Positions 8,232-58,900 of a DNA stretch of 64,000 nt are shown piece after piece. The position numbers were made by a program, and so were the translations under genes. Every line of letters begins with the position of its first letter. The first letter of the stretch is position 1. The DNA comes from an uncultured Thermodesulfobacteriota bacterium (GTDB taxonomy: Bacteria > Desulfobacterota > DSWW01). The stretch lies in the NCBI GenBank assembly GCA_964384945.1, contig CAYLMK010000001.1, forward strand, positions 125,859 to 189,858, read 5' to 3'. The notes under the pieces were generated by a model. The model was not told where the DNA came from and made no database searches. It worked only from the letters and a program-made list of their open reading frames with translations.

Positions 8232-8256
8232 CACGGCCCCCTGCAGAGTCGTCAAC

Positions 8257-9534
8257 TCACCCTTTCGCCGCCACCCATCGATCCACCAAATAGGGCTTCG
8301 TCTCCTCGAAGATTTCACACTGCTCCTCGATGGAGTCTTCGACCGCCCGGGCCTCCATACCCTGCGTCGCCCTGACGTAGGATCCGGTGCGCCCGAAATA
8401 GAGAGGAACGAAGGCCCCGATCAGTTCGTCTCGCGGGACGACGTTCCGATGAAACCCCAGGGCGAAGTCGTACACGATCTTCGCCCAAAGCCCCGGAGGA
8501 AGCTCGAACCGGTCATAGGGGAGACCCGCAATCTCCCGCGTCTTGAGAAAAACCTCTTGGGTCAACGTCTCCTCGTAAACCCGTGCGTATGCCTTGAACC
8601 CGTCCACGAAATCCCGGTGAAACCCCTTTCCGTTGACCTCCACGGGGGGAGGCACTTCGCTCTCGCCCATGCCGAATCCGAAAATGGGCGTCGGCTTGCT
8701 CCAGCGGACCCCTCTCCAGGTCTCCTCAAAGGACTCCATCAGGCGGAAGAACGTGGACATCACGTGCCGGAACATCGGGCCGAGAGTCGCCGTGGGATCC
8801 TTGGCCCGGCGGATCTTCGGCCCTCCCAGGAAGGCCTGCGCCGTTCGATACGGGCTGTTGAGCGCAAGCGTCGTCATCCAAATATCGATCCCGTAAAACG
8901 CCACACTCTCGTCCCACAGCCTGCATTCCAGGTAGAGACTGGCCATGTCGCCCGAAAAACCGAAATCGCCTCCGATGGGCTGACGCATCCGTCTTCCGTA
9001 CAGGGCTCGGGAGAGCGGATAGGCGATCTGGCTGGTGATCGTTGCGTCGTACTTGTGCCGCGTGTAAATGGGGGCCACGTAACCGTAATTCTGGAAGAGA
9101 GGCTCCCCCAGGTTCTTGATCCAACGGGGCGTGATGCTGCGCAGGTCGGCGTCCACGACCACCACGGCCTGCGCCTCCAGCGCGACCGCTTTTCGGATGA
9201 GATTCCGCACGTTGTTTCCCTTTCCCTTCACCCCCGCCGGCGTCGACAAGTAGATCTTCGGGATATCGGCGCTGTCCGCGGAGAGAAAGGCTTGTCGGGT
9301 CTCGTCCTCCGAGTGATTGTCGCAGTTGATCAAGACACTCCGGCAGTCTTTGAAGTAGGTCTTCAGCCCGATTGCAGCCTGCTCGGTCACGAACGGAATG
9401 CACTCCGCCTCGTTGAAGGACGGGATCCCGACGATGATATCCGCCTGCTGAACCCTCTGGGGATTCCATTCGATCCAGTCCGTCACCCCGGCCGGATGAT
9501 GCTTCGCGCCTTGGCTCGTACTCTCCGCCCGCAC
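8257..9534 (-). CDS. GT-A fold glycosyltransferase (GT2-like; possibly a glycosyl-glycerate/compatible-solute type synthase)
   Basis: IVGIPSFNE...VLINCDNHSEDET...VVVVDADL (DxD) motifs. Start placed at the GTG at 9534 (RBS GAAGGGAAGG). A sigma-70-like promoter (TTGACA/TAATAA) lies inside the track's N-terminal extension. Confidence 0.6.
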   Translation of the reverse strand: MRAESTSQGAKHHPAGVTDWIEWNPQRVQQADIIVGIPSFNEAECIPFVTEQAAIGLKTYFKDCRSVLINCDNHSEDETRQAFLSADSADIPKIYLSTPAGVKGKGNNVRNLIRKAVALEAQAVVVVDADLRSITPRWIKNLGEPLFQNYGYVAPIYTRHKYDATITSQIAYPLSRALYGRRMRQPIGGDFGFSGDMASLYLECRLWDESVAFYGIDIWMTTLALNSPYRTAQAFLGGPKIRRAKDPTATLGPMFRHVMSTFFRLMESFEETWRGVRWSKPTPIFGFGMGESEVPPPVEVNGKGFHRDFVDGFKAYARVYEETLTQEVFLKTREIAGLPYDRFELPPGLWAKIVYDFALGFHRNVVPRDELIGAFVPLYFGRTGSYVRATQGMEARAVEDSIEEQCEIFEETKPYLVDRWVAAKG

Positions 9535-9698
9535 GGCAGAAGCCTTCCCTTCTTCCGCTTGCGATGGGCCGACACTATTCTTTCTTGTTATTACAAAGCG
9601 ATGAACCGTGTCAAGCGCAGGCCCGCTTTCGAGCCCGGCGCCCATGGGCCTTGTGTTTTTGCCTCCCCTACGTTATACAAGGGGGGTAAGGCGATTAT

Positions 9699-9774
9699 GG
9701 GGATGTAGCTCAGCTGGGAGAGCACCACGTTCGCAACGTGGGGGTCGGCGGTTCGAATCCGCTCATCTCCACCA
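9699..9774 (+). tRNA. tRNA-Ala (anticodon CGC)
   Basis: GGGGATGTAGCTCAGCTGGGAGAGC...anticodon loop TTCGCAA...TTCGAATCC...ACCA. G3-U70 wobble in the acceptor stem (Ala identity element). Encoded CCA. Confidence 0.85.
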
Positions 9775-9965
9775 GAAACGACCGAAGATCCTGCCGCCAC
9801 GGGAGTCCTTGAGGCTCGTGCTGACCGGGCAGTCCATCCGATCCGTGCTTCCGCGCCAACGAGAATCGAGAAGCCGCCCCGCGTGATTTGCGCATGGGGC
9901 GCGGCAAGCACGGGGTCCGCACGCCACGGCGGCCCCCAAAGGAGAGGGTAGGCCGGCAAGAGGCC

Positions 9966-12461
9966 ATGATGGATACGCTCCCTCCAGACGTCCAGGTCTG
10001 CCTCCCCCTACCGATCGACGAACCGCTGACCTACCTCTGGCCCTCCTCCCTTCTTTCCCCTCCCGCCGTCGGTCTGCGGGTCCTGGTGCCCCTCGGCAAG
10101 AGGCGTGTTACCGGGTATGTGGTGGGAACGAAACCTGTACCGGTGCGTTCCGGCGCAGACTCCCCGAAGAGCTATCCGCTGAAACCGGTCGTGTCGGTGC
10201 TCGACGACGAGCCGCTTTTCGGCGACCGGGAACTCCGGTTCTTCGAATGGGTGTCCCGATACTACATCAGCCCGCTGGGCGATGTGCTGCGGGCAGCCCT
10301 GCCGGGCTCGATGAACGTGCGGAGCTGCCGGGCGGTACGAATCCTGCCGCAGGGCATGCTGGCCCTGAAACATGGCCTCTTCCTCACCGGGCAGGAGGCG
10401 GACATCCTGAGGCACCTGGAACGAGGCGGAAGATTGACGCTGCGGGCTCTCCGGCAGAAGGCGGCCCGGCCCGTCGACAGGGTCTTGGAAGGCCTGGAAG
10501 AGAAGGGGTTCCTCGAGCGGGTCCAGCTCTTCAAAGGGGGGCAGGCGAAGAGCGGAGCCGGCCGGGGCCTCCTCTGCCTGTCCGTTCCTCCCTCCCCGCC
10601 GCCGTTGGAGGAATGGATCTCCCTCCTGCCCAGGACCGAGGCTCGCATTGTGGAGCATCTGGCGCGCGAAGGGCCCTGTTCCGTTGCGGAGCTGCAAAGG
10701 GCCGTTCCGAGGTCCTCACAGGCCATGGACCGCCTTGCGGAGAAGGGCTTCATCGAGCGGATGCAAGGGCACGCGTCGGACGAGGCGGCGCCGGAGCCCT
10801 TCCGGCCGGTCCCTCCTCCGAGCCTGACGCCGGAGCAGGAAAGGGCCGTCTCCGCGATCGCCCCGTGCATCGACGGAAACTCCTTTCATTCCTTCCTCCT
10901 GCATGGAGTGACGAGCAGCGGCAAGACGGAGGTCTACCTGCAGGTCATCGACAGGGCCCTGAAGGCGGGCAAGGACGCTTTGGTGCTGGTTCCGGAGATC
11001 GGGCTCACGCCGCAGACCCTCCATCGGTTCTCTTCGCGTTTCGGAACCCGGGTTGCCGTGCTCCACTCGGGGCTTGTCGAAAGGGAGCGGCTGGACTTCT
11101 GGTGGAAGATACGGCGGGGACAGGCTCGCATCGCAATCGGCGCCCGTTCCGCCATCTTCGCCCCGTTCCGGAATCTGGGCGTGGTCGTGGTGGACGAGGA
11201 GCATGACCCTTCGTACAAGCAGCAGGATCGTATCCGTTACAACGCCAGGGACCTCGCGCTCGTTCGGGGTCAGCGGGAAAAGGCGGTCGTGATCCTGGGT
11301 TCGGCAACGCCCTCGCTCGAGTCCTACTACAACGCAAGACAGGGAAAGAGCGCGCTCCTCAAGCTGACCGAACGGATCGAAGCAAGGCCTCAACCCGAGG
11401 TCGTTCCGGTCGACATGCGCCGTCCATCCTCCCACGGGTCGCCCCGGAGCTCCCTTTCTCTCCCTCTTCAGGAGGCCCTGGTCCGCAACTGGGAGCAAGG
11501 AGGGAAGAGCCTGCTCTTTCTCAATCGACGCGGGTATGCGAACACCCTGGTCTGCAGGGATTGCGGCCACGCGGTCCGATGCCCTCACTGCAGCGTGAGC
11601 CTCACCCTGCACCGGGCGAAGAAGCGCATGTGTTGCCACTACTGCGACCACCAGCAGATTCCCCCTTCCCGGTGTCCCGCATGCCAGGGTCCGAACGTTC
11701 AACCCGTGGGCAAGGGCACGGAGCGGATTGAGGAGGAAATCGGGGCACTTCTTCCCGAGGCCCGGATCGGTCGAATGGACCGGGATACGACACACAGGAG
11801 AGGAGAACACGAGAGAATCCTCAAGCGCTTCAAGGGAGAGGAGTTGGATATCCTGGTGGGAACCCAGATGATCGCCAAAGGGCACGACATTCCGGCCGTC
11901 ACGCTGGTGGGCGTCGTCCTTGCGGATGTTTCCCTGGACCTCCCGGATTTTCGGGCGGCCGAGCGGACCCTGCAGCTCCTCATGCAGGTGGCCGGCAGGG
12001 CGGGACGGGGTCCCCGGCCGGGTCGGGTTTTGATCCAGAGCTATCATCCGGATCATCCCTGTATCGAATCCGTGCGTCTTCACGATTTCCAGCGATTCTA
12101 CGAACAAGAAATCGCAACGCGCAGAGAACTCGACTATCCCCCGTTCTGCAGGATGGTGAACCTTCGCATCACCGGAACCGGAGAGGAGGCGGCACGGGAA
12201 GCCGCCCGCCGGATGGGAGAGACCGCGCGTGCGATCCGAGAAGAAAGAGACCCCGTTTACAGGGACATCGAGATGCTCGGTCCGTCGCTCGCACCCCTTG
12301 CAAAGCTGCGGGATCGATTCCGGTTCCATTGCTTCCTGAAGGGAAAGGCACCGGGACCGCTTCATGACTTCACGCGGGAGATCATCGCCCGGCGCGGGAA
12401 GTTCCTTTCATCGAGAAGCCTGCATCTCGAAATCGACGTGGACCCGGTCCAGGTATTGTAG
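9966..12461 (+). CDS. priA: primosomal protein N' (replication restart helicase PriA)
   Basis: Helicase Walker A/B motifs (GVTSSGKTEVY, VVVDEEHD), Cys-rich zinc-binding region (CRDCGH...CPHCSVSL...CHYCDH...CPACQG) and C-terminal helicase domain. ATG at 9966 with AAGAGG RBS. Confidence 0.9.
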   Translation: MMDTLPPDVQVCLPLPIDEPLTYLWPSSLLSPPAVGLRVLVPLGKRRVTGYVVGTKPVPVRSGADSPKSYPLKPVVSVLDDEPLFGDRELRFFEWVSRYYISPLGDVLRAALPGSMNVRSCRAVRILPQGMLALKHGLFLTGQEADILRHLERGGRLTLRALRQKAARPVDRVLEGLEEKGFLERVQLFKGGQAKSGAGRGLLCLSVPPSPPPLEEWISLLPRTEARIVEHLAREGPCSVAELQRAVPRSSQAMDRLAEKGFIERMQGHASDEAAPEPFRPVPPPSLTPEQERAVSAIAPCIDGNSFHSFLLHGVTSSGKTEVYLQVIDRALKAGKDALVLVPEIGLTPQTLHRFSSRFGTRVAVLHSGLVERERLDFWWKIRRGQARIAIGARSAIFAPFRNLGVVVVDEEHDPSYKQQDRIRYNARDLALVRGQREKAVVILGSATPSLESYYNARQGKSALLKLTERIEARPQPEVVPVDMRRPSSHGSPRSSLSLPLQEALVRNWEQGGKSLLFLNRRGYANTLVCRDCGHAVRCPHCSVSLTLHRAKKRMCCHYCDHQQIPPSRCPACQGPNVQPVGKGTERIEEEIGALLPEARIGRMDRDTTHRRGEHERILKRFKGEELDILVGTQMIAKGHDIPAVTLVGVVLADVSLDLPDFRAAERTLQLLMQVAGRAGRGPRPGRVLIQSYHPDHPCIESVRLHDFQRFYEQEIATRRELDYPPFCRMVNLRITGTGEEAAREAARRMGETARAIREERDPVYRDIEMLGPSLAPLAKLRDRFRFHCFLKGKAPGPLHDFTREIIARRGKFLSSRSLHLEIDVDPVQVL

Positions 12462-12826: not shown

Positions 12827-13139
12827 CCCCCCGCGCTCATGCCTCAACAGCCGGTCGCCCGGCTCCCTCGTCGGGCCAGGAGGCCCGTCTTCCCGGATCT
12901 GTTGACCCGATCGAGGGTTCTGTGAGAACATTTTTTTCCTGACGGTCGACCGGGAAGAGGCGCTGCGGCGAATCCCCTCCCCTTCCCGGCGGGAATCGGG
13001 ACGTATCGCGTTACGTTTTTCGACTCCTTGTTTCCATTTTGCTCTCCGCCGCGCTTCCGTTCCGATCTCCGGTGACGGGGCGTCCCTGCGATATCCCCTC
13101 GAATCGAAGGCTGAATGAAAGGGGGAGTTCGAGAAACGG

Positions 13140-14084
13140 ATGGGTGGACGAAATTGTATTCAAAGGCTTGCCGGAGTGACGGCCGCATTGCTGTGCATTT
13201 TCGCAGGCACACCCGCGCTCCGGGCCGGATCCAAGGCGGCCGTCGTGGTCCGTGACAGGCTCTGCGTTCCGGGCGAGGAGACCACCATCGAGGCAACCCT
13301 CTATCGAGGCGGTCTCTTCGGCCTGTTCACGGAAGGCGTTCAGGGGGAGCTGCTTTGCTTTTTCGATCCTCAGGGGAATCCCCTCGACAATCGGCTCACC
13401 GACCCGTCCGGCTCCGCCAGAACCCGCTTCACGGTCGGCGCTGCCGGCCGATATACGGTGACGGTGCGTCTGGCCGACAACCCGCGCTATTCGGCCGAGC
13501 CTGCGGCAGGGCTCCTGTTCGTCCGGGAGAGAGAGACGCCCCTGCTCTTCGTCATGGTCGAGTCCGGCCTCATGCCCCGGATCTCGGCGCCGTGGCCCGT
13601 GAGGGACTTGAAGGAGATTGCGGCCGAGCCCAGCTCGGCGGAGGCGCTCTCCGAGGTCGCCGGATGCCGCGTGCTGGTCTACCTCACCCAGACTCCCAGG
13701 CCGTCGGCAGAGCGCGTGCGGTCCTGGCTGACAGACAGAGGCTATCCGCCGGGCCCCCTCGCATTCCTGGATCCTCCTGCCTGGATCGCCATGCTGTCCG
13801 AAGCCCCCGCGATGAAGACGACGGTGCTCGAATCCTTCTGGAAGGAGCGGTCCGTGCCCGCCCACCTGCTGACCCGCGACCGCGGCATGGCGGAGGCGGC
13901 CGCAGGCAAGGGTTTCCACGTGCTGCTCCTGGCGCCGGAAGCGCCGGCCGGCGAGGCGTCCCCGGAGCGGGGAAGGCAGGAAGACGAGCGGCGGGAAAAG
14001 GGGAAGGGGGAAAACATCGAATCCTTTGCGGACTGGTCGGCGCTCCCTGTGATCTGCCGCTGCAAGCCAGGGAAGAGCGGCTAG
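13140..14084 (+). CDS. secreted hypothetical protein (signal peptide; N-terminal beta-sandwich-like region)
   Basis: N-terminal signal peptide MGGRNCIQRLAGVTAALLCIFAGTPALRAG. No recognizable catalytic motif. Confidence 0.45.
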   Translation: MGGRNCIQRLAGVTAALLCIFAGTPALRAGSKAAVVVRDRLCVPGEETTIEATLYRGGLFGLFTEGVQGELLCFFDPQGNPLDNRLTDPSGSARTRFTVGAAGRYTVTVRLADNPRYSAEPAAGLLFVRERETPLLFVMVESGLMPRISAPWPVRDLKEIAAEPSSAEALSEVAGCRVLVYLTQTPRPSAERVRSWLTDRGYPPGPLAFLDPPAWIAMLSEAPAMKTTVLESFWKERSVPAHLLTRDRGMAEAAAGKGFHVLLLAPEAPAGEASPERGRQEDERREKGKGENIESFADWSALPVICRCKPGKSG

Positions 14085-14154
14085 CGGGCCGGCACACAAC
14101 GGCACCCGAGCCGCTGGTTTCTCATCACGCCCACATGGGCAGGAGGCTGGAATC

Positions 14155-14601
14155 ATGAAGAGTCTGAAGGAGATCGTCGCGGACCCCGCCCGAGCACACG
14201 ATGTGATGGCCGACAGCCTGCGATATCTGGACGAAGAAATCGCCAGGCGTTCCGGGATCGGCGGCATGGCGATCAAGGGGGCTTACAAGGTCATCAAGAA
14301 CATCCAGGGCGGGAAGATGATCGAGAAGGCTGTCCGGGTGCTCATCCCCGAATTCATCGACAAGCTGGACCCGTACTACCTTCGATTCCAGCAGGAGGGA
14401 AAGGGACAGCCGTGGGAAGAGTTCCTCCGGCCCCACTACCCTGCCCTCGCAGACGAGCTCCTTGCCGTTACGGACCGAAAGATCCAGGGAACGGACAACC
14501 GTGCGGTTCGCGGGGCCTACGAAAAGCTCCGGCCCAGGGCGCAAAAGGAGGTCATGGCCTCGCTGCCTTCTCTGACCCGTTGGATGGAACGCTACATCTG
14601 A
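14155..14601 (+). CDS. hypothetical protein (148 aa)
   Basis: Clean ORF with ATG and coding-like GC3. No motif recognized. Confidence 0.45.
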   Translation: MKSLKEIVADPARAHDVMADSLRYLDEEIARRSGIGGMAIKGAYKVIKNIQGGKMIEKAVRVLIPEFIDKLDPYYLRFQQEGKGQPWEEFLRPHYPALADELLAVTDRKIQGTDNRAVRGAYEKLRPRAQKEVMASLPSLTRWMERYI

Positions 14602-15362
14602 CCGGGCGGGATTTCTCCGCCGTTCCTCGTGAGTTCATAGAGCTTCGCGTACTTGACGAACTCGTGGAATGCGGACAGAACGCTTGCGACCAGTCCCGGG
14701 ACCCCGTCCAGGAACCCGCGTTTTCCGACGTATTGTTGCAGGAACATGAAGAGGGGGCTGCCCAGCAACCGGGCGAGGGAGAAGGGTCTGCCGGAGCGGG
14801 CAAGCGAGGCGGCGCTCAGGCCCGTGTATCGCTGAATCGTCTCGAGGTGTTCCCGGATGCTGGGAAAGGAGTAGTGGAGCAAGGGGTGTCGCAGTCTCCC
14901 GCACGGCCCGTCCAGAAGAACCGTTTCGTGCACATCCTGTTCGCCCCAGCGGCCGAGCGCCTTCTGAAACAGCCGCACCTTCAAGTCCGGATACCAGCAG
15001 TGGCGGAGGAATCGCCCCAGATAGCGGGTCATTCTCGGTATCCGATAGCCGGCGAGGTCCGGATCGCGGCTCAGGGTGGACCGGATCTCTTCGGCAAGCT
15101 CGGGGCTCACCACTTCGTCCGCATCCAGGCTCAGCACCCACGGATGGGAAGCCTCCCGGAGTGCAAGCGTCTTCTGCCTTGCATACCCCTGCCACGCGTG
15201 CTGGAAAACCTTTGCCCCGTAACGCCTGGCGATCTGGAGGGAGCGATCGGTGGAGAACGAATCCAGCACCACGATTTCATCGGCCCACGGAACCGCGGAC
15301 AGACACTCCCCCAGGATTGCTTCCTCGTTGAAACAGATGACGACGACCGAGAGCCTTGCCAT
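14592..15362 (-). CDS. family 2 glycosyltransferase (LPS core/KdtX-WaaE-like)
   Basis: MARLSVVVICFNEE...VLDSFSTD...LSLDADE (DxD) GT2 motifs. GGAGG RBS. The track N-terminal 47 aa were rejected. Confidence 0.75.
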   Translation of the reverse strand: MARLSVVVICFNEEAILGECLSAVPWADEIVVLDSFSTDRSLQIARRYGAKVFQHAWQGYARQKTLALREASHPWVLSLDADEVVSPELAEEIRSTLSRDPDLAGYRIPRMTRYLGRFLRHCWYPDLKVRLFQKALGRWGEQDVHETVLLDGPCGRLRHPLLHYSFPSIREHLETIQRYTGLSAASLARSGRPFSLARLLGSPLFMFLQQYVGKRGFLDGVPGLVASVLSAFHEFVKYAKLYELTRNGGEIPPGQM

Positions 15363-15459
15363 GGGTTCCTCCCCTTTCCGGCCTACGAAGTAGGAATCCG
15401 AGGCGCAACGCTCCTCGCTCCACGGAACGAAAAACCGGGGGATCGTGCTCGGAACGAGG

Positions 15460-15975
15460 CTAGGATCGGGAACTCGGGAGGGAAACCTTTTTGTGTTCGT
15501 CAAAGGCGTGCATATGTTTTCCGCCGTCCCAGAGCAGGAAGAAATCCGTAAGGACCTTGTTGTCCCTGTACATGTCCCTTGCCTGCAGCATCTTCGTAAT
15601 GATCCCGTCCAGCCGGTCGAAATCCTCCCTCATCTCCTGCAGGGTCACGTCCAGAACATGCTCGGTCTTCTGCATGGGATAGCCCTGTTCGATCATGTGC
15701 TGCGCCTCGACCAGAATGTTGGCCGCGTGCATCAGCGAAGCGACCTTGGAGCGCAACGAGATTTCATATTCGTTGGCAAGGATCTTCTCCGAGGGGTCGT
15801 CGCCCTTCTTGAACAGCTCGTCCCAGCAATACTTGGCGGCTCGCAGTTCCGCCGCAACGATCTGAAAGAGGCCTTCATACTCGATCTCGGACTTGATCAG
15901 GCTCTGAGAACGCAGGATACTTGCAAACATATCTTTGATAAAATGGTTCATGTTTTTCTTGACGTGGAGTTTCAT
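15460..15975 (-). CDS. hypothetical protein, His/Glu-rich (possibly hemerythrin-like metal-binding), low-GC
   Basis: Visibly lower GC than its neighbours. Motifs H..E / HAFDEH. Overlaps the unused 5' part of the dus track ORF. Confidence 0.4.
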   Translation of the reverse strand: MKLHVKKNMNHFIKDMFASILRSQSLIKSEIEYEGLFQIVAAELRAAKYCWDELFKKGDDPSEKILANEYEISLRSKVASLMHAANILVEAQHMIEQGYPMQKTEHVLDVTLQEMREDFDRLDGIITKMLQARDMYRDNKVLTDFFLLWDGGKHMHAFDEHKKVSLPSSRS

Positions 15976-17182: not shown

Positions 17183-19393
17183 TCAGGAAGCTTGATCGCA
17201 GGCTTGCGCGTCCGAGGTCACTGTAACCCCGAGGAGCAGCCCGCCGGAGGAGGAGGCGAATTCGAGAAGGTTCAGGGTGGCGTGGCCGGTCACCGAGACC
17301 GCTCCGACGCAGAGCCGGTCCCCTTCGCGGAGGGTCTCGCCCCTCAAATCCCATGCAAACGAGCCTGTCGCTGCGTCGAATGTCGGCTCTCCTCGAGGTT
17401 TTCCGTTCCACAGGGCCTTGATCTCGTTCAATTCGGAGACGTTCGCGTAGATCGTAGCCTGCAGGAGGAGGTCTTCCGGAGTGACAATCTGCCCGTTCTT
17501 CAGGTTGGACAGGATCACGTTCGGCCCTGTCGTCTCCTGCAAGGAGACCGCAATCTCGTAAGCCTCCTGCTCCGAGTCCGGGTCGACGTCGATCTCGAAC
17601 CCGGAGAACCTCGCCGTCGGTATTTCTTCTTCGTCCTCCACCTTTTCCTTCGCCAGCAGAACGCCGATCGTCTTGTAGGTCACGGAGGCGGGCTCGACCT
17701 CGATCCACTCCCAGGGGTTCTGCGGATACTCCCCCCCCGCATTCAGATCCACCCAATCGTCCGCTCTCTCCGGCGTGCCTTTGCCGCCCGTGAGGGGGTC
17801 GCAGGGGCAGCGCACGTCGTTGATCGGGGGTTCCTCCGCTGGACAGGCGCATCGGTAGGCGGAAAACGATGGCTGGCCCCTGTCGTCGGCGGCCCTGGCG
17901 CGGACCCGCAAGGTTTCGCCGAAAGGCAACTGGGCGTTCTGGTTCTTGTCGACTGCCGGGAAGATCTCCCGGATCTGAATCTGCGGGGCCTGATTCTCCT
18001 TCGTCGAAGGCAGGAACACGATGGGCACGTTCTTCTCTGTCTGGTTTCCCTGCACATCGAGGGCGAGGACCGACAGCGAGTTGGGTAGCCCTCCCGCCTC
18101 GTCCGGTTCGTCCACGATTCCGTCGCCGTCCCAGTCCGTCAAGAAGACAAGGGCTGCCAGAAAGTCTCCCTCCAGCGTGATCGTTTCCGGATCCAGAAGC
18201 AGAAACCGGCTCCTGCCGCCTTGCTCTCCCTCGGAAAGCCGCAGGAGCAGCGACCGCACCTCCCCGCTGAAGCTTTTGATGCTGCCCGTGATGTTCTCGG
18301 CTGCGTTCGAGGTCTCCACCCGGTCCTCGTCCTCTCCGGTCACTTCCAGCTCCGGCTGCCAGTCCAGCCTGTCGGGCGAGAAGGAGAATTGCCGGGCAAC
18401 CTGCGTCGAGCGAAACACCCCTGTCTTCTGATCGGGCACGTCTTCGGCGGAGACGGAATAGCGGTACAGCGCCGGTTCCTGTCCGCCGATCACCTCGCCC
18501 GATCCCTCGCTCCTCAACCTCGGATCGAAAACCTGGAATACCTCCGTAAAATTGCCGCTGGTCGCATCCCAGTCGAGGAAATCGTCGTCGTTCCACTTGA
18601 CCAGCGAACGCCAGAGAGCGGTCACCGAGTCGATCCCGTCTTCGCCGTCGCCCGCTCTGAGAAGGATCTGGAAAGAGCAAGGCTCCGCCTCTTCGGGGTC
18701 CCAGGAGAACGCATCCCCCGACCGCAACGTGTAGCATCCGGGCGAGGCGCCGCCTGCAGGGCAGTCCTGCGCAGGGCGGCCGGACGTGCTGCAGGCTGTC
18801 CTGTAATAAAGGGAATAGACAAGGCCGGGGTCCCCCTCGAGGCTGGTCACTCTCAAGATACGGTATTCGGCCCGGATCCGGATCGGATCCTCTTCCGATG
18901 CAGGGACGAGAATGTCCTGCGCCTCCGACACCCGCACCTCCACCTGGTTTTCCTCGCCATCGGCCGTCCCCAGAGAAAAAAGAAAACGGTCCCCGCGAAT
19001 CAGTCTCCGAGCCGCCAGCGAGGGCTCGCATTCGAAGAAGCCCCCCTCCGCCGCTTCGCAGCTCATTTGACATTCGAAGAAACCGTCCTCCGCGCCCGAG
19101 CACGACGAGAACCCCTGCCCACCGGCATCCTCACGCACGGCGGTCCAGACGATCCTCGGGTTGACGACGGCCGTGTTGTCCGTAATGTTTCCCTGGATGC
19201 GGACGGGCGATTGGGGTGCGACGCCCCCGTCTTCGAGGGAGACCCAAGCGCCGCCCGTCAGGCTGTCCCAGTAGGAAAGCCGCACGTTGGTGATTTGGGG
19301 AGCCTCCGGGTTTCCGCAGCCGCAGGAGAGGAGAAAAAGAAGCAAAAAGATCCGGGCCCTTGCGGCCGATCCCCCACGTTGTCTCGCTCGCAT
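17183..19393 (-). CDS. large acidic lipoprotein, hypothetical (thrombospondin type-3-like Ca-binding motif)
   Basis: Start MRARQRGG...IFLLLFLLSCGC has a lipoprotein signal (LLS-C). DWDGDGIVDEPDE motif and repeated GFFEC motifs. 737 aa. Confidence 0.55.
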   Translation of the reverse strand: MRARQRGGSAARARIFLLLFLLSCGCGNPEAPQITNVRLSYWDSLTGGAWVSLEDGGVAPQSPVRIQGNITDNTAVVNPRIVWTAVREDAGGQGFSSCSGAEDGFFECQMSCEAAEGGFFECEPSLAARRLIRGDRFLFSLGTADGEENQVEVRVSEAQDILVPASEEDPIRIRAEYRILRVTSLEGDPGLVYSLYYRTACSTSGRPAQDCPAGGASPGCYTLRSGDAFSWDPEEAEPCSFQILLRAGDGEDGIDSVTALWRSLVKWNDDDFLDWDATSGNFTEVFQVFDPRLRSEGSGEVIGGQEPALYRYSVSAEDVPDQKTGVFRSTQVARQFSFSPDRLDWQPELEVTGEDEDRVETSNAAENITGSIKSFSGEVRSLLLRLSEGEQGGRSRFLLLDPETITLEGDFLAALVFLTDWDGDGIVDEPDEAGGLPNSLSVLALDVQGNQTEKNVPIVFLPSTKENQAPQIQIREIFPAVDKNQNAQLPFGETLRVRARAADDRGQPSFSAYRCACPAEEPPINDVRCPCDPLTGGKGTPERADDWVDLNAGGEYPQNPWEWIEVEPASVTYKTIGVLLAKEKVEDEEEIPTARFSGFEIDVDPDSEQEAYEIAVSLQETTGPNVILSNLKNGQIVTPEDLLLQATIYANVSELNEIKALWNGKPRGEPTFDAATGSFAWDLRGETLREGDRLCVGAVSVTGHATLNLLEFASSSGGLLLGVTVTSDAQACDQAS

Positions 19394-19445
19394 CTCTCCC
19401 CCGTCTCCCCTTGGCCTGCAGGAAAGCCGATGCTCCCCGTGAGCC

Positions 19446-20783
19446 CTATCCTTCCCGCTCACGGATGGCATCGTAAAAAAGCGTATGCTCCGGCACGAAG
19501 ATCAGATCGACCGTTCCGACCGGTCCGTTTCGCTGCTTCCCGATGATGAGCTCCGCCTTTCCCCGGCATTCCGGTTTGTCCCGAAAATAGAATTCCTCAC
19601 GGTAGACGAAAGCAATCAGGTCCGCATCCTGTTCGATCGCACCCGACTCGCGCAGGTCGGCCAGCATCGGCCTCTTGTCCGGCCGGTTCTCCACCCCGCG
19701 GTTGAGCTGCGAAAGGGCCAGGACGGGAACGTTGAGCTCCTTCGCCAGCCGCTTCAGGGAACGGGAGATCTCCGATATTTCCTGAACACGATTCTCGAAC
19801 CTCCCGGACCCCTGCATGAGCTGCAGGTAATCGATGATGATGAGCTCGACTCCATGCTCCCGTCTCATCTGGCGCGCCTTGCCCCGCATTTCCGTCACAT
19901 GCATGCTCGGCGAATCGTCGATGAAGATCGGAGCCCTCGACAGGACGTCGGCGGCCTTGGTGAGCTTCGGAAAATCCGACTTCTTGATATAGCCGGAACG
20001 CAGCTTGGATCCGTCAACCCTCGCCTCGGCGCAGAGCAGCCGGGTGGCCAGTTGTTCCCGGGACATCTCCAGGGAGAAAATCGCAACCGGCAGCCCTTCC
20101 TTCAGGGCGACGTGGGAGGCGATATTCAGGGCAAGGGCCGTCTTGCCCATGCTCGGCCTGCCCGCAAGAATCACGAGGTCCGAGCGCTGCAATCCGGACG
20201 TCTTGTGATCGAAGTCCACGAAGCCGGTGCCGACACCGGAGAGCATTCCCTGTTTGTCGTAAAGTTTTTCGATCGACTGGAACGTCTCCTGCAGGACCGC
20301 CCGGAGGGGGACGAATCCCTGCCGCTGCTGGCTGCGGGAGACCTCCAGAATGGTCTGCTCCGCCCGGTCCAGGAAGGATACCGCGTCCTCGGGCTCCTCG
20401 TAGCCCTGCCGGGCGATCTCCGTGGCGGCCTCGATCAGCCGCCGCAGAACGGATTTCTCCTTGACGATCTTCGCATAATAGAGGATGTTGGCGGCCGTGG
20501 GAACCTCGTCCGCCAGGGAGGCGAGATAGACCGCACCGCCCACCTCCTGAAGCGAGCCCTTCCGATTCACTTCCTCGGTGAGCGTGATCAGGTCCACCGG
20601 GTGGTTCCGCTCCGAGAGGTCCACCATGGCCTGATAGATCTTCCGGTGCGCGTCCCGGTAGAAGTCCTCCTCGCGGAGAATCTCCACCACGTTGGGCATG
20701 GCCCGGTTCTCGAGCAGGATTCCCCCCAGGACCGAGCGTTCCGCCTCGAGGTTCTGTGGGGGAACCCGTTCCAGAAAGCCCAT
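19446..20783 (-). CDS. dnaB: replicative DNA helicase DnaB
   Basis: N-terminal DnaB domain, Walker A GRPSMGKTA, Walker B ELIIIDYLQLM, and the conserved rplI-dnaB context. Confidence 0.95.
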   Translation of the reverse strand: MGFLERVPPQNLEAERSVLGGILLENRAMPNVVEILREEDFYRDAHRKIYQAMVDLSERNHPVDLITLTEEVNRKGSLQEVGGAVYLASLADEVPTAANILYYAKIVKEKSVLRRLIEAATEIARQGYEEPEDAVSFLDRAEQTILEVSRSQQRQGFVPLRAVLQETFQSIEKLYDKQGMLSGVGTGFVDFDHKTSGLQRSDLVILAGRPSMGKTALALNIASHVALKEGLPVAIFSLEMSREQLATRLLCAEARVDGSKLRSGYIKKSDFPKLTKAADVLSRAPIFIDDSPSMHVTEMRGKARQMRREHGVELIIIDYLQLMQGSGRFENRVQEISEISRSLKRLAKELNVPVLALSQLNRGVENRPDKRPMLADLRESGAIEQDADLIAFVYREEFYFRDKPECRGKAELIIGKQRNGPVGTVDLIFVPEHTLFYDAIREREG

Positions 20784-28950: not shown

Positions 28951-29201
28951 CATAGGATCTTTCATCGGAATTGTCAACAAAAAATTCGCCGTCAAACCGT
29001 CCGAGCCCTTCCAGGAGGCCACGACAGGGCGCCGGGGTCCCCCGCGTTCCGAAGGGACCGAAGGATGGGCCCGCAGGTCCGGGCCTCCCGGCCGCCGTCA
29101 CACAGACCCCTCACCTTGCATTCCGGGGTCGGTATCCATATCATAGTGCTTCGCGCGGCCGGCTAAAACATCTTTTCCAATCCTTTGATTACGGACCGAC
29201 C

Positions 29202-31313
29202 ATGGACACGCGTTCTCCTGCGGAACCCCTGCGCTACCTGATCACGGGCGGAGGAACCGCCGGCCACGTCTACCCCGGGCTTGCACTGGCGGAAGGCATT
29301 CGGCGCCATGAGCCGGATGCCGAGTTTCTGTTCGTGGGGGCTCGAAGGGGCGCCGAAGAAAGGATCGTACCCGCACAAGGACATGCGCTCCAGACACTTG
29401 CGGTCAGGGGGATCCCGACCACGACGGGTCCCTTCCTGTGGTTGCAGACCATCTGGCGCCTCGGCGTATCCCTGCTGCAGGCAATCCGGCTGATCCTGCG
29501 GTTCAGGCCCCATGCAATCATCGGAACGGGCGGGTATGCGAGTGCGCCGGTGCTCCTGGCGGCCGTTGTCCTGCGAAGCGTCCGGCTTTGGAAGGGGGTT
29601 CTGAGCCTGCATGAGGCGAACATCATCCCGGGCAGGTTCAACCGGTGGATGTCGGGGTGGGCGGACTTCACGGGCACGAGTTTCCCGGAGACCCTCCGGT
29701 TCTTCTCGAAGAAGAATTCTTTCTGGACGGGCTACCCCCTGCGAAACGATCTGGAGGCGTCCTCGAAACGCAGAGGGCGGGACCGTGAGGAGCCCAAGAG
29801 GCGCCTGGGGATTCCCCCGGCGGGCGAGGTTCTTCTCGTTTTCGGGGGAAGCTCGGGGGCCCGGACCATCAACCGTGCCGTGTTCGAGGCGCTCCCAAGG
29901 CTCCTGCAGCGCGAGGGGCTCACCGTCTTTCACGCCACCGGACACCCGCAGGCGGCATACGACCCGGGGGCGGAATTCCGCGAACTGCTGCCCGGACTGC
30001 CGGTCGACGCGAATGTCGTGCAGTCGCGGTATCGCCGGGAGGAGTATCTGCATCATATCGAAGGCTATTACGAAGCGGCCGACATCGTGGTCTGCCGATC
30101 CGGTGCGGGCGCGATCTGGGAACTCGCCGCCTACGGCACGCCGTCGGTTCTCATACCGAAATCAAACCTGCCGGGGGACCATCAGGTCAAGAACGCCTAC
30201 TTCCTCGCACGCCGGGGACAGGCGCGCATTCTTTTCGAGAAACGACCCGTTCCGCCGGAGCCGGCGGGCTCGGAATCGGTCGATCCGGATGCCTTTGCGG
30301 ACGCCGTTCTGTCGATGCTCGACCGAAAAGGCGGCCCCGAGGATCGCAAGAAGGGCACGCCGGCGCAATCGGAGATCCCTTCCGGGAAGGATCTCTTCTA
30401 CGCTCTTATCCGGCGTTTCCGGGAACGGGGGCGGGCCGAGCCGCCGATCCCGCAGGCAACGGCGGGCCCCGGATGGCGCGAGGAAAAGCCCGGCAGCACC
30501 GCGGCCCGCACCGGGATCGAGTGGATCGGCGCCGAGGCGCTTCTCACCCGTCTGGAGGACGACCGGAAACATAAGCGAGAGCTGCCTGAGGAGGAAAGGG
30601 CATATCTGAAATACAAGACCGATCAACTGCTCGCCTCGCCCCGCTGGCAGGACAGAAACGCGGGGGTCAAGCTCGTCGGAGTCATCGGCTACCGGGAGAG
30701 ACTCCCCACGTTGCTCTACATGGTCACGGACCGCACCCCGGCGGCCTGGCACCGGAGGCTGCTGGGCGGGGACTTTGAACAGGTGGGATTCATACGACGC
30801 AATGCACTGCAGGCCGTATGGCGGCTTCGCACGTGCGGTCCCGCCGTCAGGGAGGCCCTGCGAATCGCCCTGCGGGACCCTTATTACGAGGTGCGGTCCT
30901 GGGCGGCCCGCGCGATCGAAAGGCTTTCCCCGGAGATCGGGGAGGACGAGGAGATGGTTCGCCTGCTGCGAAGGAACCTGAAGGACCGCTGGTTCGAGGT
31001 GGTCGTATCCTCGCTGAGGGCCCTGGCCATGATCACGAAGGATCCGAACATCCTCTCCGACCTGATCCCCCTTCTCAGCCACAAGAACTGGAAGGTGCAG
31101 CAGGCGACGGTCCGCTGCCTGACGAGGCTCATGCAGGCCGATGTCATCCGTCTGTCGAAAGAGGCGGAGGAATGGGTCAACAAGATCCCGATGAAGGGGC
31201 TGGACTTCTTCCCAAGCTTCCCGCTCAAGCAGACCTGGGAAGACTTCCAGCGTGTGCTCTCCGAGAAGGCGGCATGCGAGAGGCCGCCGGAAACGAACAA
31301 GGGGGCCTGCTGA
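29202..31313 (+). CDS. murG: MurG (GT28 UDP-GlcNAc:lipid I transferase) fused to a C-terminal HEAT-repeat domain
   Basis: ITGGGTAGHVYPGLALAEG N-motif and SGAGAIWELAAYGTPSVLIP...HQVKNA C-motif of MurG. Followed by about 250 aa with HEAT/PBS-lyase-like repeats (YYEVRSWAARAIERL, WFEVVVSSLRALAMI, NWKVQQATVRCLTRL). The track N-terminal 77 aa were rejected. Confidence 0.75.
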   Translation: MDTRSPAEPLRYLITGGGTAGHVYPGLALAEGIRRHEPDAEFLFVGARRGAEERIVPAQGHALQTLAVRGIPTTTGPFLWLQTIWRLGVSLLQAIRLILRFRPHAIIGTGGYASAPVLLAAVVLRSVRLWKGVLSLHEANIIPGRFNRWMSGWADFTGTSFPETLRFFSKKNSFWTGYPLRNDLEASSKRRGRDREEPKRRLGIPPAGEVLLVFGGSSGARTINRAVFEALPRLLQREGLTVFHATGHPQAAYDPGAEFRELLPGLPVDANVVQSRYRREEYLHHIEGYYEAADIVVCRSGAGAIWELAAYGTPSVLIPKSNLPGDHQVKNAYFLARRGQARILFEKRPVPPEPAGSESVDPDAFADAVLSMLDRKGGPEDRKKGTPAQSEIPSGKDLFYALIRRFRERGRAEPPIPQATAGPGWREEKPGSTAARTGIEWIGAEALLTRLEDDRKHKRELPEEERAYLKYKTDQLLASPRWQDRNAGVKLVGVIGYRERLPTLLYMVTDRTPAAWHRRLLGGDFEQVGFIRRNALQAVWRLRTCGPAVREALRIALRDPYYEVRSWAARAIERLSPEIGEDEEMVRLLRRNLKDRWFEVVVSSLRALAMITKDPNILSDLIPLLSHKNWKVQQATVRCLTRLMQADVIRLSKEAEEWVNKIPMKGLDFFPSFPLKQTWEDFQRVLSEKAACERPPETNKGAC

Positions 31314-31314
31314 C

Positions 31315-32427
31315 ATGTTCCAAGCGCTTTACGGCTGGTTCTACGACCCGGAGGGACCGTTCTCGTTCATCCGGCTCTTTTATTACATCAGCAGCCGGAC
31401 CGTCTTTGCGATCATCACCTCCTTCGTCTTCACGCTTCTGGCGGGAAGGCCGTTGATCCGGGCCCTGTACCGGATGGGGATGCGGGACACGCAACGGGCA
31501 GAGATGGTGGAAGCGCGGGAACACAAGAAGGGGGGGACGCCCACCATGGGAGGCGTCATCCTCTTCTCGGCCACCATGCTCTCCGCTCTCTTGTGGTGCG
31601 ACCTGACGAATCGATTCATCCTCTTTCTTCTGGCTGCCTCCGTGTGGTTCTTCGCGCTCGGATTCTGGGACGATATGCGTAAGATCAGGCACCGGGACAG
31701 CAACAAGGGCCTTTCCCGAAGAATGAAGTACGCCGGACAGATCTCCTTCGGCCTGCTCCTGAGCCTGTTCTTTCTCCATCCGTCGACCTCCCCGGTGCCC
31801 GCTACGGTGGTCTCGAAGTTCTATATTCCTTATTACAAGTACCCCCTTGCGGATCTCTCCTGGGGATACACGATCGTGATCGTGCTCTTCGTCGTCTACG
31901 CAGCGAACGCGATCAACTTCGCAGACGGAATGGACGGGCTCGCCATCGTCCCTTCCGCGTACGCCATCGGCGTCTATGGAGTTTTCGCGTACATGCTGGG
32001 TAACGCAAAGTACAGCCAGTATCTCATGTTCGATTATCTGCCCGGCTGCGGCGAGGTGAGCATCCTGTGCGCCGCCCTGCTCGGTGCCTGTGCCGGATTT
32101 CTTTGGTACAACAGCTATCCCGCTGAGATCTTCATGGGCGACACCGGATCCATGTTCCTGGGGGGTGTCCTGGGAACGATGGTCGTGCTCCTGAAACAGG
32201 AGGTTCTTTTTCTCATCGTGGGCGGCATCTTCCTCGCCGAGATTCTCTCCGTTGCGCTCCAGGACTGGATCGGCATCCAGCGAACCGGACGGCGATTCTT
32301 GTATCGGGCGCCCCTGCACCACACGTTTCAGTACCAAGGGCTGGCCGAAACCAAGATCACGGTGCGTTTCTGGATCGTCTCCGGCGTACTCGCGCTGTTG
32401 GCGCTTGGGTCGTTGAAGATCCGTTGA
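31315..32427 (+). CDS. mraY: phospho-N-acetylmuramoyl-pentapeptide transferase (MraY)
   Basis: KKGGTPTMGG, NAINFADGMDGLA, MGDTGS and PLHHTF motifs. Its ATG lies 1 nt after the murG stop. Confidence 0.8.
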   Translation: MFQALYGWFYDPEGPFSFIRLFYYISSRTVFAIITSFVFTLLAGRPLIRALYRMGMRDTQRAEMVEAREHKKGGTPTMGGVILFSATMLSALLWCDLTNRFILFLLAASVWFFALGFWDDMRKIRHRDSNKGLSRRMKYAGQISFGLLLSLFFLHPSTSPVPATVVSKFYIPYYKYPLADLSWGYTIVIVLFVVYAANAINFADGMDGLAIVPSAYAIGVYGVFAYMLGNAKYSQYLMFDYLPGCGEVSILCAALLGACAGFLWYNSYPAEIFMGDTGSMFLGGVLGTMVVLLKQEVLFLIVGGIFLAEILSVALQDWIGIQRTGRRFLYRAPLHHTFQYQGLAETKITVRFWIVSGVLALLALGSLKIR

Positions 32428-52437: not shown

Positions 52438-54345
52438 TCACGAGGCCCCGTCCAGGGTCGGCATCTTGTATCGCTTCAGGGCCTGGTATAGGACGATTCT
52501 CGTCTGGGGGCCGAGGATGCCGTCCTCCTCGAGGAAGTGATCCCTCTGGAAGGCCATGAGCGCTTCGGCCGTCTTCGGGTCGAAGACCCCGCTCGGCTCC
52601 GACCCGTAGTAGCCCAGATCCCGCAGGGAGGACTGCATCTGCCCGATGGTTCCGCCCTTCATCCCCTCGGCCAGGTACCTCTTTTCCCCCCATTCGTCCT
52701 TCCACAGGACGTAAGCAGTGCCGTACCAGAGGGACTCCAGCACGCTCAGCGGCACGAGCGAGGCGCCGTCGCTGAGCGGGGGAGCAATCCTGGCCGCCTC
52801 CCCCTCGAAGGCAAGGAGGCCCACGTATCTCTTCGTCATGTTCTTGTCCAGCCGCAGTTCCAGAAGCGCCGGAAGATTCAGGGCTCGAAGCCGATTGACG
52901 TTCCCCCACAGCCGCAGACACTGGAATCCCACGGCCTTCGAGGCCGTAAAGAGATCCGGGGCGCCGCGGTAGAGCCTGCGTGCCTCCTCTTTGGAAAGCC
53001 CGGAATCCCATTTCCCCAGAACGGCGAGGAAGGCCTCCTCACGCGTCTCCAAGAGCGGCTTGCTGTACAGCGCGCGGAGGATCTGTTCTTCGATACCGGC
53101 CGAGGGATCCCCAGTATCCTCCGATTCGAGCAAGGCAGATTCCTCGATCGACGCCCGCGGCGCCGGGCCGGCCTCGGCCGTCTCGTCGGGGTCCCGGCCG
53201 GCTGCCGGCTCCCCTGCAGCCTCCGGCCGGGGCGTCTGCGGCTCTTCCTCCGTGATGGGTCTCGGAGGGGATGCCGTCTCCGGAGATTTCGATGCGAGAA
53301 GGGCGGGCGTCTCTGCTTCCTCCGGCGGACCCGAACCCGGGACGAGGGCTTCCGGGGCGGTTTCTCTGTCGGAAGCGGCCGCCTGCTCGGCGGCGGCCCC
53401 CTCCCCCCTCGCCTTCGGCTCTTCGGCGAGATAATCTCGGAGCACGATCACGAGCAGGACGAGGAAGACCCCGAGGAGCGAGGCCGGAACGAGCCCGCGC
53501 CGGACCGCCCGGCCGACGGTCGGGCTGACCGCCCAGGCTGGCCGTCCGGTGACCTCCCTGCTCGCCCGATCGACCATCGGCCCGTCGATGTTCTTGATCC
53601 TCTGTCCGTAACCGGCCAGCAGCGCGCGGTCGCAAAGGACGTTGATCAGCCGCGGCACCCCTCTCGTATGCCGCCAGACCCGCTTCAGCGCATCCGGCGA
53701 GAACAAGATCTTGTCCGACGCATCGATGACGGAGAGACGGTGTCGGATATACTCGGCCGTCTCCGCCTGTGAAAGCGCCCCGAGGTGGTATCGTACCGTG
53801 ACACGCTGATTGAGCTGAAGGAGGCGGGGTTCCTCCAGAATGTGGCGGAATTCGGGCTGCCCGATCAGGATGATCTGCAGCAGCTTCTCGGTCTCGGTCT
53901 CCAGGTTGGACAAGAGACGAATCTGCTCCAGAACCTCTCCGTCGAGGCTCTGCGCCTCATCGATGATGAGGACCGTGTTCTTGCCTTCCCGGCGCTTTTC
54001 CAGCAGGAACCGGTTGAGTTCGTCGATGAGTTCCTTCTTCGTCGTCCCCTGCGAGGGGATCCCGAAATCCTCGTTGATGCTCTTGAGCAATTCCAGAGCG
54101 GACAGAGTGGGATTGAAGATGAAGGCTACCAGCGTGTTTTCGTCGAGATGTCTCAGCAGCCCCCGGCAAAGGGTGGTCTTTCCCGCGCCGATCTCCCCGG
54201 TGATCACGATGAACCCGCCCCGCTCCCGTATGCCGTACAGGAGGTGGGCAAAGGCCTCCTTGTGCGTCTTTCCGAGATAGAGGAACTTGGGATCCGGGGT
54301 GATCGAGAATGGTTTTTCAGCGATACCGTAAAAGGAACAGTACAT
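52438..54345 (-). CDS. gspA: ExeA/GspA-like AAA ATPase with C-terminal peptidoglycan-binding domain
   Basis: Walker A GEIGAGKTT, Walker B LIIDEAQ, TM segment, low-complexity Pro/Glu/Ala linker, C-terminal PG_binding_1-like motif (LGYYGSEPSGVFDPKTAEALMAFQRDHFLEEDGILGPQT). Confidence 0.8.
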   Translation of the reverse strand: MYCSFYGIAEKPFSITPDPKFLYLGKTHKEAFAHLLYGIRERGGFIVITGEIGAGKTTLCRGLLRHLDENTLVAFIFNPTLSALELLKSINEDFGIPSQGTTKKELIDELNRFLLEKRREGKNTVLIIDEAQSLDGEVLEQIRLLSNLETETEKLLQIILIGQPEFRHILEEPRLLQLNQRVTVRYHLGALSQAETAEYIRHRLSVIDASDKILFSPDALKRVWRHTRGVPRLINVLCDRALLAGYGQRIKNIDGPMVDRASREVTGRPAWAVSPTVGRAVRRGLVPASLLGVFLVLLVIVLRDYLAEEPKARGEGAAAEQAAASDRETAPEALVPGSGPPEEAETPALLASKSPETASPPRPITEEEPQTPRPEAAGEPAAGRDPDETAEAGPAPRASIEESALLESEDTGDPSAGIEEQILRALYSKPLLETREEAFLAVLGKWDSGLSKEEARRLYRGAPDLFTASKAVGFQCLRLWGNVNRLRALNLPALLELRLDKNMTKRYVGLLAFEGEAARIAPPLSDGASLVPLSVLESLWYGTAYVLWKDEWGEKRYLAEGMKGGTIGQMQSSLRDLGYYGSEPSGVFDPKTAEALMAFQRDHFLEEDGILGPQTRIVLYQALKRYKMPTLDGAS

Positions 54346-54526
54346 AACCCTATTTCCATCCCGCATGTCTGGGCACGCAAGGTGGATCTTATGAGAAAAG
54401 CGGCGGAATAGCAAGACAAACGCGTTCCGGCTCCCCACCGCTGCACCCCGGAAGTTCGTTGACAGAAATTCCATACCTGTGTTAGACAGTTACAGGGCCG
54501 GTGCTCCTGGAAACGGAAGGCAAGCC

Positions 54527-58871: not shown

Positions 58872-58900
58872 TTGTCTTTTCCCCTTGCTATGCATATAAT
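58872..58900 (+). promoter_or_regulatory. sigma-70-type promoter (-35 TTGTCT, 17-nt spacer, -10 TATAAT) upstream of the receiver-AAA-HTH-LpxC gene
   Basis: Read directly in the sequence, about 65 nt upstream of the ATG at 58968. Confidence 0.45.

Follow-up and report, generated by a model that had tools for sequence, protein, structure and literature searches.

Examination of a 64,000-nucleotide stretch of the genome of an uncultured Thermodesulfobacteriota bacterium (contig CAYLMK010000001.1 of GenBank assembly GCA_964384945.1, positions 125,859 to 189,858; this whole stretch is referred to here as the window) revealed a two-gene operon in which a gene encoding a MurG-type family 28 glycosyltransferase (GT28) fused to a C-terminal domain of HEAT-like repeats is directly followed by mraY. 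On balance, this murG-HEAT/mraY pair, here termed the module, is best explained as a lipid II operon in which the HEAT domain would act as an adaptor for MraY and which likely provides a second set of these enzymes. What is new is probably the conserved cassette with its dedicated adaptor, the enzymes themselves being of known kinds and their chemistry probably standard.

A MurG-HEAT fusion gene precedes mraY

The mechanically defined open reading frame (ORF) of the fusion gene spans positions 28971..31313 of the + strand; with the ATG at 29202, which is the start conserved in the family, a protein of 703 residues is predicted. The TGA stop codon of this gene (31311-31313) is followed by a single base and then by the ATG of mraY (31315-31317), with an AGGGGG Shine-Dalgarno-like run lying at 31300-31305, 9 nt ahead of that ATG. 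As such, the presence of a complete mraY 1 nt after the fusion gene, as described in an earlier sequence-only reading of this DNA, was confirmed. A sigma-70-like promoter was sought on the + strand upstream of the operon and none was found.

The locus is bordered on one side by spoVG, prs, ctc, pth and a gene encoding an H+-pyrophosphatase and on the other by asd, a gene encoding a patatin-like protein, and mutS2. When all 15 proteins encoded by the Escherichia coli division and cell wall (dcw) gene cluster were used as queries in a tblastn search of the 64-kb window, the only matches obtained were to the two genes considered here. Accordingly, the locus is not embedded among dcw genes, and its order, murG then mraY, differs from the canonical mraY-murD-ftsW-murG. 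The earlier description of a locus outside a dcw cluster, in reversed order and flanked by spoVG/prs and asd, is thus accurate.

The N-terminal part of the fusion protein contains both GT28 domains, namely, Glyco_transf_28 (PF03033; residues 13-155, 96.2 bits as compared to a gathering cutoff of 26.2) and Glyco_tran_28_C (PF04101; residues 210-347, 85.8 bits as compared to a cutoff of 22). The GGTGGH loop, the HEQN and GGSxGA motifs, a glutamate (E307) and the HQxxNA motif are invariant across the family, with the E. coli MurG row of the alignment included. Likewise, a Foldseek search with the whole predicted model returned MurG crystal structures (1F0K, 1NLM and 3S2U) as the best structural matches, with template modelling scores of 0.78-0.84 on the target. 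Against the MurG equivalog model TIGR01133, by contrast, the GT28 part scored 201.9 bits, below the cutoff of 250.25, a cutoff that was missed by all six module members tested (four other family members scored 200-239 bits, as compared to 334 for the canonical deltaproteobacterial MurG of L091, where L-numbers denote fetched genomic loci and P-numbers denote protein representatives). Identity to E. coli MurG is 29% and to the canonical deltaproteobacterial MurG 33%. The protein can therefore be called a bona fide MurG, as had been claimed, in terms of fold and motifs and not in terms of the NCBI family threshold. Judging from its sequence, the GT28 domain of the module would most likely convert lipid I to lipid II. 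In some family members (P0087 from Thermodesulforhabdus norvegica and P0109), an extra hydrophobic N-terminal segment, such as MIYLVISVVTIYVFTALLINRSF, lies ahead of the GGTGGH loop and is probably a membrane anchor; the window protein does not contain this segment.

In the C-terminal part of the protein, Pfam HEAT_2 (residues 531-608, 43 bits) and HEAT (residues 617-645) were both detected above their gathering scores. An AlphaFold2 model built on an alignment of 40 family sequences (predicted local distance difference test score (pLDDT) 86.5; predicted template modelling score (pTM) 0.85) comprises a Rossmann-type GT-B part extending to about residue 384, a disordered linker (384-435), an all-helical repeat region (444-661), a loop and a terminal helix (674-693). 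Within the linker, residues 384-389, 411-413 and 423-435 were modelled with pLDDT values under 50, no column is conserved, and both length and sequence differ across the family. The presence of tandem helical repeats forming an alpha-solenoid of about 220 residues, together with Pfam HEAT models above cutoff, confirms the C-terminal HEAT repeats reported earlier; the region neither failed to model as a solenoid nor appears to be a mis-joined ORF, the architecture being family-wide. Three motifs in the HEAT region are invariant or near-invariant in the family, namely, WxxRNxGVK (W482, R485, N486, G488, V489 and K490), LLGGDFxQVGFIRRN (520-534) and DPYYEVR (559-565). In the DFxPxFPLK tail, F669, P671, F673 and K676 are almost invariant among the 40 family members, and L063 and L152, whose stand-alone HEAT proteins are described below, encode the same tail. 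Such strongly kept sequence motifs indicate that the C-terminal domain is more than a scaffold of loose conservation.

The MraY encoded in the window (370 residues) scored 279.5 bits against TIGR00445 (cutoff 192.05), and four other module MraYs scored 280-302 bits, as compared to 455 bits for the canonical MraY of L091; against the WecA model, module MraYs scored only about 31 bits. The window protein aligned end-to-end with E. coli MraY (37% identity), and in a phmmer search its residues 16-370 aligned to the MraY structures from E. coli (8G01) and Aquifex aeolicus (4J72). Residues D119, D120, D276, K138, N198, N201, D204 and H335, the latter being the first histidine of the HHH loop, are conserved. 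A further 13 positions, including K294, F299, G320 and K347, are invariant in the module yet different from E. coli. Some module-type MraYs (P0126, P0127 and P0130) are longer, at 430-490 residues, owing to inserts of variable sequence that follow the conserved HPxTSP stretch. That of P0126 is rich in Cys, and the inserts probably lie in a periplasmic loop. A HEAT-derived origin for the extra length was considered and ruled out, since the insert bears no relation to HEAT.

The module is widely but sparsely distributed and its gene pairing is constant

A protein search with the fusion returned 357 relatives, the best 120 of which are all 571-741 residues in length and nearly all of the GT28-plus-HEAT Pfam architecture; the family as a whole comprises more than 120 protein clusters with a common architecture of 660-740 residues. 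When one genome per species was scanned with two peptide patterns from the HEAT domain, 234 loci were found among 185,579 genomes, and a further 233 loci were found in Joint Genome Institute (JGI) metagenomes. The best 80 of the 234 loci come mostly from Syntrophobacteria/Syntrophobacteraceae, with others from Desulfacinum infernum, D. hydrothermale, Desulfosoma, Desulfarculia, Myxococcota, Latescibacterota, Zixibacteria, Glassbacteria, Gemmatimonadales and Vicinamibacterales/Acidobacteriota. Named sources of fused proteins are T. norvegica, Thermodesulfobacteriota, Gemmatimonadota and Vicinamibacterales. In the species collection, the closest relative of the window protein is from a Syntrophobacteria metagenome-assembled genome (MAG); the HEAT domains of the two are 76% identical and the accompanying MraYs 89%. 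No fused homologue was found among the plasmid sequences searched. The fusion bears generic database names, i.e., 'MurG' at JGI and 'glycosyltransferase' at NCBI.

Flanking sequences were fetched for 87 and then 80 loci, roughly 170 in total. In every fetched locus with downstream sequence, mraY lies directly 3' of the HEAT-coding region and on the same strand. An automated criterion scored mraY as adjoining in 157 of 162 loci, with the other five corresponding to split alignments that still show mraY. The gap between the two genes is 10 nt or less in 133 of 156 loci (median, -4 nt), and the commonest junction is a 4-nt ATGA-type overlap (76 loci). The surrounding genes differ from lineage to lineage. 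In Syntrophobacteraceae, tsaC, purD and purE lie upstream and panE and panB downstream, whereas secDF, ligA and the rpoA ribosomal cluster flank the pair in a Gemmatimonadota/Latescibacterota group. Because the flanks vary by lineage while the murG-HEAT/mraY pair is constant, the pair can be considered an autonomous unit that is stably inherited within lineages.

Genes for candidate lipid flippases recur nearby. A murJ gene is found directly downstream of mraY in L004, and MurJ-like genes lie directly upstream of the pair in L016, L027, L044, L061, L110 and L165. In a Glassbacteria-type lineage (L077, L078, L085 and L089), murG-HEAT and mraY are followed by a gene for a Wzx/SpoVB-like MOP flippase (Polysacc_synt, not MurJ), sometimes an esterase gene, and a gene for a secreted beta-helix (NosD-like) protein. 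This cluster faces a convergent operon encoding a tetratricopeptide repeat protein, a conserved protein of 420-437 residues with no Pfam match, and MurE with its DNPR motif.

Module enzymes stand apart from the canonical MraY and MurG

MraY (TIGR00445) serves as a single-copy marker. As a canonical reference, use was made of L091, a deltaproteobacterial MAG locus with the gene order mraZ-rsmH-ftsL-ftsI-murE-murF-mraY-murD-ftsW-murG-murC-murB-ddl-ftsQ. In the trimmed alignment, the L091 MraY is 61% identical to its E. coli counterpart (59% by pairwise BLASTP); its identity to MraYs of Alphaproteobacteria and Marinimicrobia is 55-59%, and that to the Syntrophobacteria module MraY only 44%. Module MraYs share 38-50% identity with any canonical MraY and 46-73% with each other across phyla, as compared to 49-61% among canonical MraYs across phyla. 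In a neighbour-joining tree, one branch splits 156 module MraYs (at least seven phyla) from 104 canonical MraYs in 100 of 100 bootstraps, such that the module MraY does not group with canonical MraYs. A search of protein representatives with MraY found the nearest canonical relatives in Alphaproteobacteria and Marinimicrobia, with none coming from the host lineages.

On the basis of sequence, the MraY and MurG of the module are thus a divergent, monophyletic, cross-phylum family and not ordinary orthologues. The alternative entertained at the outset, i.e., ordinary orthologues with a fusion that is common and already annotated in relatives, proved correct in that the fusion is indeed common and generically annotated, and incorrect in that the proteins form a divergent clade. 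This pattern of divergence, together with the sparse distribution outside Syntrophobacteria, better fits a paralogous or horizontally spread subfamily than the vertical descent of a sole copy. As such, the module is most likely an alternative or second set of lipid II synthases that would coexist with the canonical dcw enzymes.

These data also bear on the possibility, which we consider real if doubtful, that the two genes encode the only MurG and MraY of the organism, being essential genes that moved out of the dcw cluster, with MurG gaining a scaffold domain. Such a sole set would be in keeping with the position of the operon among housekeeping genes in lineage-stable synteny, with intact catalytic residues and a MraY that passes the equivalog model, and with the embedding of the Latescibacteria HEAT and MraY genes in an envelope cluster (see below). 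It is, however, difficult to reconcile with the separation of module MraYs of at least seven phyla from canonical MraYs, with a canonical deltaproteobacterial MraY that is nearer to that of E. coli than to the Syntrophobacteria module MraY, with the loss or splitting off of GT28 in a nested lineage that retains peptidoglycan genes, and with the sparse distribution noted above, because of which most Gemmatimonadota, Acidobacteriota and Myxococcota must use canonical genes. Accordingly, a second set appears to be about twice as likely as a sole relocated set.

The HEAT domain remains with mraY in the absence of GT28

One Latescibacteria lineage has four loci (L063, L116, L152 and L173) at which a stand-alone HEAT protein of 290-311 residues containing all of the family motifs is encoded directly ahead of a module-type mraY, to which it is translationally coupled. 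This form comprises 13 protein clusters, one of which is named 'HEAT repeat domain-containing protein [Ca. Latescibacteria]'. No GT28 gene was found near these four loci in the fetched flanks, which extend 2-10 kb upstream depending on the contig. In L173, the neighbourhood encodes TolB, Pal, CpoB, an SLT lytic transglycosylase, two YkuD L,D-transpeptidases, HEAT, MraY and a PBP5-type carboxypeptidase. A further candidate for a stand-alone HEAT gene, L172, was rejected as a split introduced by gene calling.

In the MraY tree, when rooted on canonical sequences, the stand-alone lineage is monophyletic and lies several nodes deep among fused lineages, a nesting that was not bootstrapped. Since the lineage is nested in this manner, the stand-alone state would appear to be derived, through loss of GT28 or fission. 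The removal of GT28 being tolerated in a lineage that keeps peptidoglycan metabolism suggests either that another MurG exists in those genomes or that the GT28 gene was relocated. At the same time, HEAT and MraY were kept together where GT28 is absent, and the HEAT domain is therefore read as a MraY-linked adaptor; we infer that its conserved functional link is to MraY and not to the GT28 domain.

It is conceivable, if unlikely, that the enzymes are as proposed and that the HEAT domain instead regulates GT28 in cis or recruits other partners, such as Mur ligases, MurJ, MreB or divisome proteins. Solenoids of the HEAT/ARM type bind proteins generically, a pTM as high as that obtained despite a disordered linker suggests a defined contact between HEAT and GT28, and MurG scaffolds Mur ligases in Bordetella (PMC6420597). 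Across the fetched flanks, however, genes for Mur ligases, mreB and fts genes do not recur from lineage to lineage, whereas mraY is the sole gene always adjoining the HEAT-coding region, and its coupling to that region persists where GT28 is missing. The docking to the divisome or elongasome that had been suggested for the scaffold domain found no evidence in its favour here, the data pointing to MraY as the partner of HEAT.

Proposed role and product of the module

In the role proposed for the module, MraY would transfer phospho-MurNAc-pentapeptide (MurNAc, N-acetylmuramic acid) onto undecaprenyl phosphate to yield lipid I, to which the GT28 domain would add N-acetylglucosamine, yielding lipid II. 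The HEAT solenoid, which most lineages have fused to MurG, would serve as the dedicated adaptor, with the flexible linker holding GT28 at MraY and so tethering a soluble transferase to a membrane enzyme. The fused form may hence be a hard-wired MraY-MurG unit for the handover of lipid I, with the overlapping stop and start codons keeping the synthesis of MurG-HEAT and MraY matched. An adjacent or separately encoded MOP flippase would then export lipid II. Both the physical binding of HEAT to MraY and the channelling of substrate are what we infer from these observations.

The repeated presence, close to the pair, of genes for MurJ/Wzx-type flippases, MurE, L,D-transpeptidases and PBP5 makes lipid I and lipid II the most likely products. 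That the pair instead builds a different lipid-linked glycan or glycopeptide, as the sequence-only reading had offered as an option, seems improbable. The clade is divergent, the GT28 part falls under the TIGR01133 cutoff in all members tested, and the Glassbacteria-type lineage combines a Wzx/SpoVB-like flippase with a secreted beta-helix protein, so that the product of that one lineage might be a modified one. Still, module MraYs, with catalytic residues intact, score far higher on the MraY equivalog model than on the WecA model and align with E. coli MraY along their entire length, the donor and acceptor motifs of MurG are invariant, true murJ genes adjoin the pair in several lineages, and murE with its DNPR motif and genes for L,D-transpeptidases, PBP5 and Tol-Pal are found among the neighbours. 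That the two parts of the fusion were mis-joined by a sequencing or assembly error can be dismissed, given the recurrence of the architecture in more than 120 independent protein clusters, drawn from many assemblies and isolates, and the presence of a protein identical to the window fusion in JGI, NCBI and Logan assemblies; nothing was found in favour of such an error, although one related locus, L172, is split by gene calling.

Several observations weigh against the explanation favoured here, i.e., a second lipid II set with a MraY adaptor. No dcw gene was found in the roughly 170 related flanks, nor was a second copy of either enzyme seen there or in the window. The murE gene of the Glassbacteria-type lineage is not part of a dcw cluster, which fits scattered single-copy genes equally well; this and the missing second copy would both suit a sole relocated set. 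The tree separating module from canonical MraYs is a simple neighbour-joining analysis. The apparent loss of GT28 in Latescibacteria could be fission, with the GT28 gene relocated. Finally, in the predicted model, the pTM could mean that HEAT packs onto GT28 and so has an intramolecular regulatory role.

Going further, it may tentatively be proposed that the cassette is ancient and horizontally spread and that its HEAT adaptor welds MurG to a specialised MraY acting in parallel to the dcw enzymes. Were this so, the module could support wall synthesis in a mode or at a site of its own, or could be a back-up resisting MraY/MurG inhibitors, and the adaptor, as singled out by the pairs of stand-alone HEAT and MraY, would be the first dedicated partner protein or regulator known for MraY.

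Relation to known systems

As compared to canonical MurG (1F0K and 3S2U), with which it shares the GT-B fold, both GT28 domains and the motifs, the module protein adds a C-terminal extension of about 320 residues (linker, HEAT solenoid and conserved tail), and its gene lies upstream of mraY and outside the dcw cluster. Canonical MraY (8G01 and 4J72) is collinear with module MraY, in which the catalytic residues are kept, yet the latter forms a separate clade and is always preceded by a HEAT-coding region. The HEAT domain likewise differs from other HEAT/PBS-lyase proteins, such as the alphaRep designs, E. coli YibA (1OYZ) and CpcE/F (5N3U), which do not contain the WxxRNxGVK, GGDFxQVGFIRRN and DFxPxFPLK motifs, whereas the module domain is fixed in a MurG/MraY context.

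In Kitasatospora, MurG can be replaced by MglA, a distant MurG homologue (about 31% identity) whose gene lies outside the dcw cluster (PMC8092295). Although MglA of Kitasatospora and Streptomyces resembles the module protein in its location outside dcw and its two GT28 domains, it is reported with these two domains only, with no mention of HEAT or of a mraY partner, and in actinobacteria only; substitution for MurG was shown for MglA (PMC8092295), whereas the module is known from sequence. Should the module indeed be a second set, the alternative lipid II synthases, few of which are known (MglA among them), would extend to Gram-negative phyla. Two mraY genes, mraY1 and mraY2, are present in Planctopirus limnophila (PMC10632474). 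No paper describing a MurG-HEAT fusion, or joining MurG, HEAT repeats and peptidoglycan, was found in the literature search, and the literature found on second mraY copies and on Syntrophobacter contained nothing on the module family, the Syntrophobacter proteome supplements having neither MurG nor MraY entries.

E. coli MurG is complexed with proteins of lateral growth (elongation) and of division (PMC2170320). Whether a MraY-MurG complex channels lipid I is a long-discussed question, one that is hard to test because the association is weak in model bacteria. MraY reportedly belongs to the MurG complex of E. coli, the same two enzymes as considered here being proposed to act together so that lipid I is passed on directly, and no dedicated adaptor for their association is known. 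In E. coli, however, this association is non-covalent, with murD and ftsW lying between the two genes, while the module appears to fix the pairing by domain and gene coupling. A direct HEAT-MraY fusion of the 'Rosetta stone' type was sought among the protein clusters and none was found. A pairing fixed by gene order, by translational coupling and by an adaptor that stays with MraY without MurG would give structural and biochemical studies of the complex a natural entry point, for which cultured carriers exist in T. norvegica, D. infernum and D. hydrothermale. The module is also of relevance for annotation, since NCBI labels the fusion merely as a glycosyltransferase.

Features of the locus and other genes of the window

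The features of the murG-HEAT/mraY locus and of related loci in other genomes are listed in Table 1.

Table 1. Positions of the module features in the window and of clusters in related loci.
Feature	Position	Strand	Basis
murG-HEAT fusion gene (703 aa plus stop)	29202..31313	+	ORF, conserved start, Pfam, AlphaFold2 model
GT28 (MurG-type) catalytic region, residues 13-347	29238..30242	+	PF03033 and PF04101, TIGR01133, Foldseek, invariant motifs
Variable disordered linker, residues 384-435	30351..30506	+	Low pLDDT, no column conservation, length varies
HEAT-like alpha-solenoid domain, residues 444-661	30531..31184	+	Pfam HEAT models, AlphaFold2, family motifs
C-terminal motif DFxPxFPLK, residues 668-676, just ahead of last helix	31203..31229	+	Near-invariant columns
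Coupling junction (AGGGGG, TGA, one base, ATG)	31300..31317	+	Direct sequence reading
Module-clade mraY (370 aa plus stop)	31315..32427	+	TIGR00445, alignment to E. coli MraY, bootstrapped clade
Stand-alone HEAT and mraY loci	L063:9698-11749; L173:10001-11996; L152:9485-11768; L116:2066-3848		
Glassbacteria-type clusters	L077:8654-20287; L089:6853-18608; also L085, L078		

Elsewhere in the window, an uninterrupted ORF (58809..61196, + strand; probable start ATG at 58968) encodes a complete NtrC-type sigma-54 activator together with a full LpxC deacetylase. The activator comprises a receiver, an AAA+ domain, a lid and a stretch resembling a Fis-type helix-turn-helix, and is joined through the linker 'SKPEASKPVL' to the LpxC part (PF03331, 266 bits, residues 521-788), with no stop codon between the parts. 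Such a regulator-LpxC fusion would be unusual. A gene on the opposite strand (52438..54474, -) encodes an ExeA-like protein, in which an AAA_22 ATPase is followed by a C-terminal PG_binding_1 domain. The PriA helicase encoded at 9888..12461 (+) shows weak MarR-like matches between its 3'BD and helicase domains (whole-protein E of about 1e-7 to 1e-6, with no single stretch passing). Finally, four ORFs encoding 379-762 residues (8071..9708, +; 13011..14276, -; 14412..15551, +; and 17183..19471, -) have no Pfam match at E <= 1e-5 and represent candidate genes.

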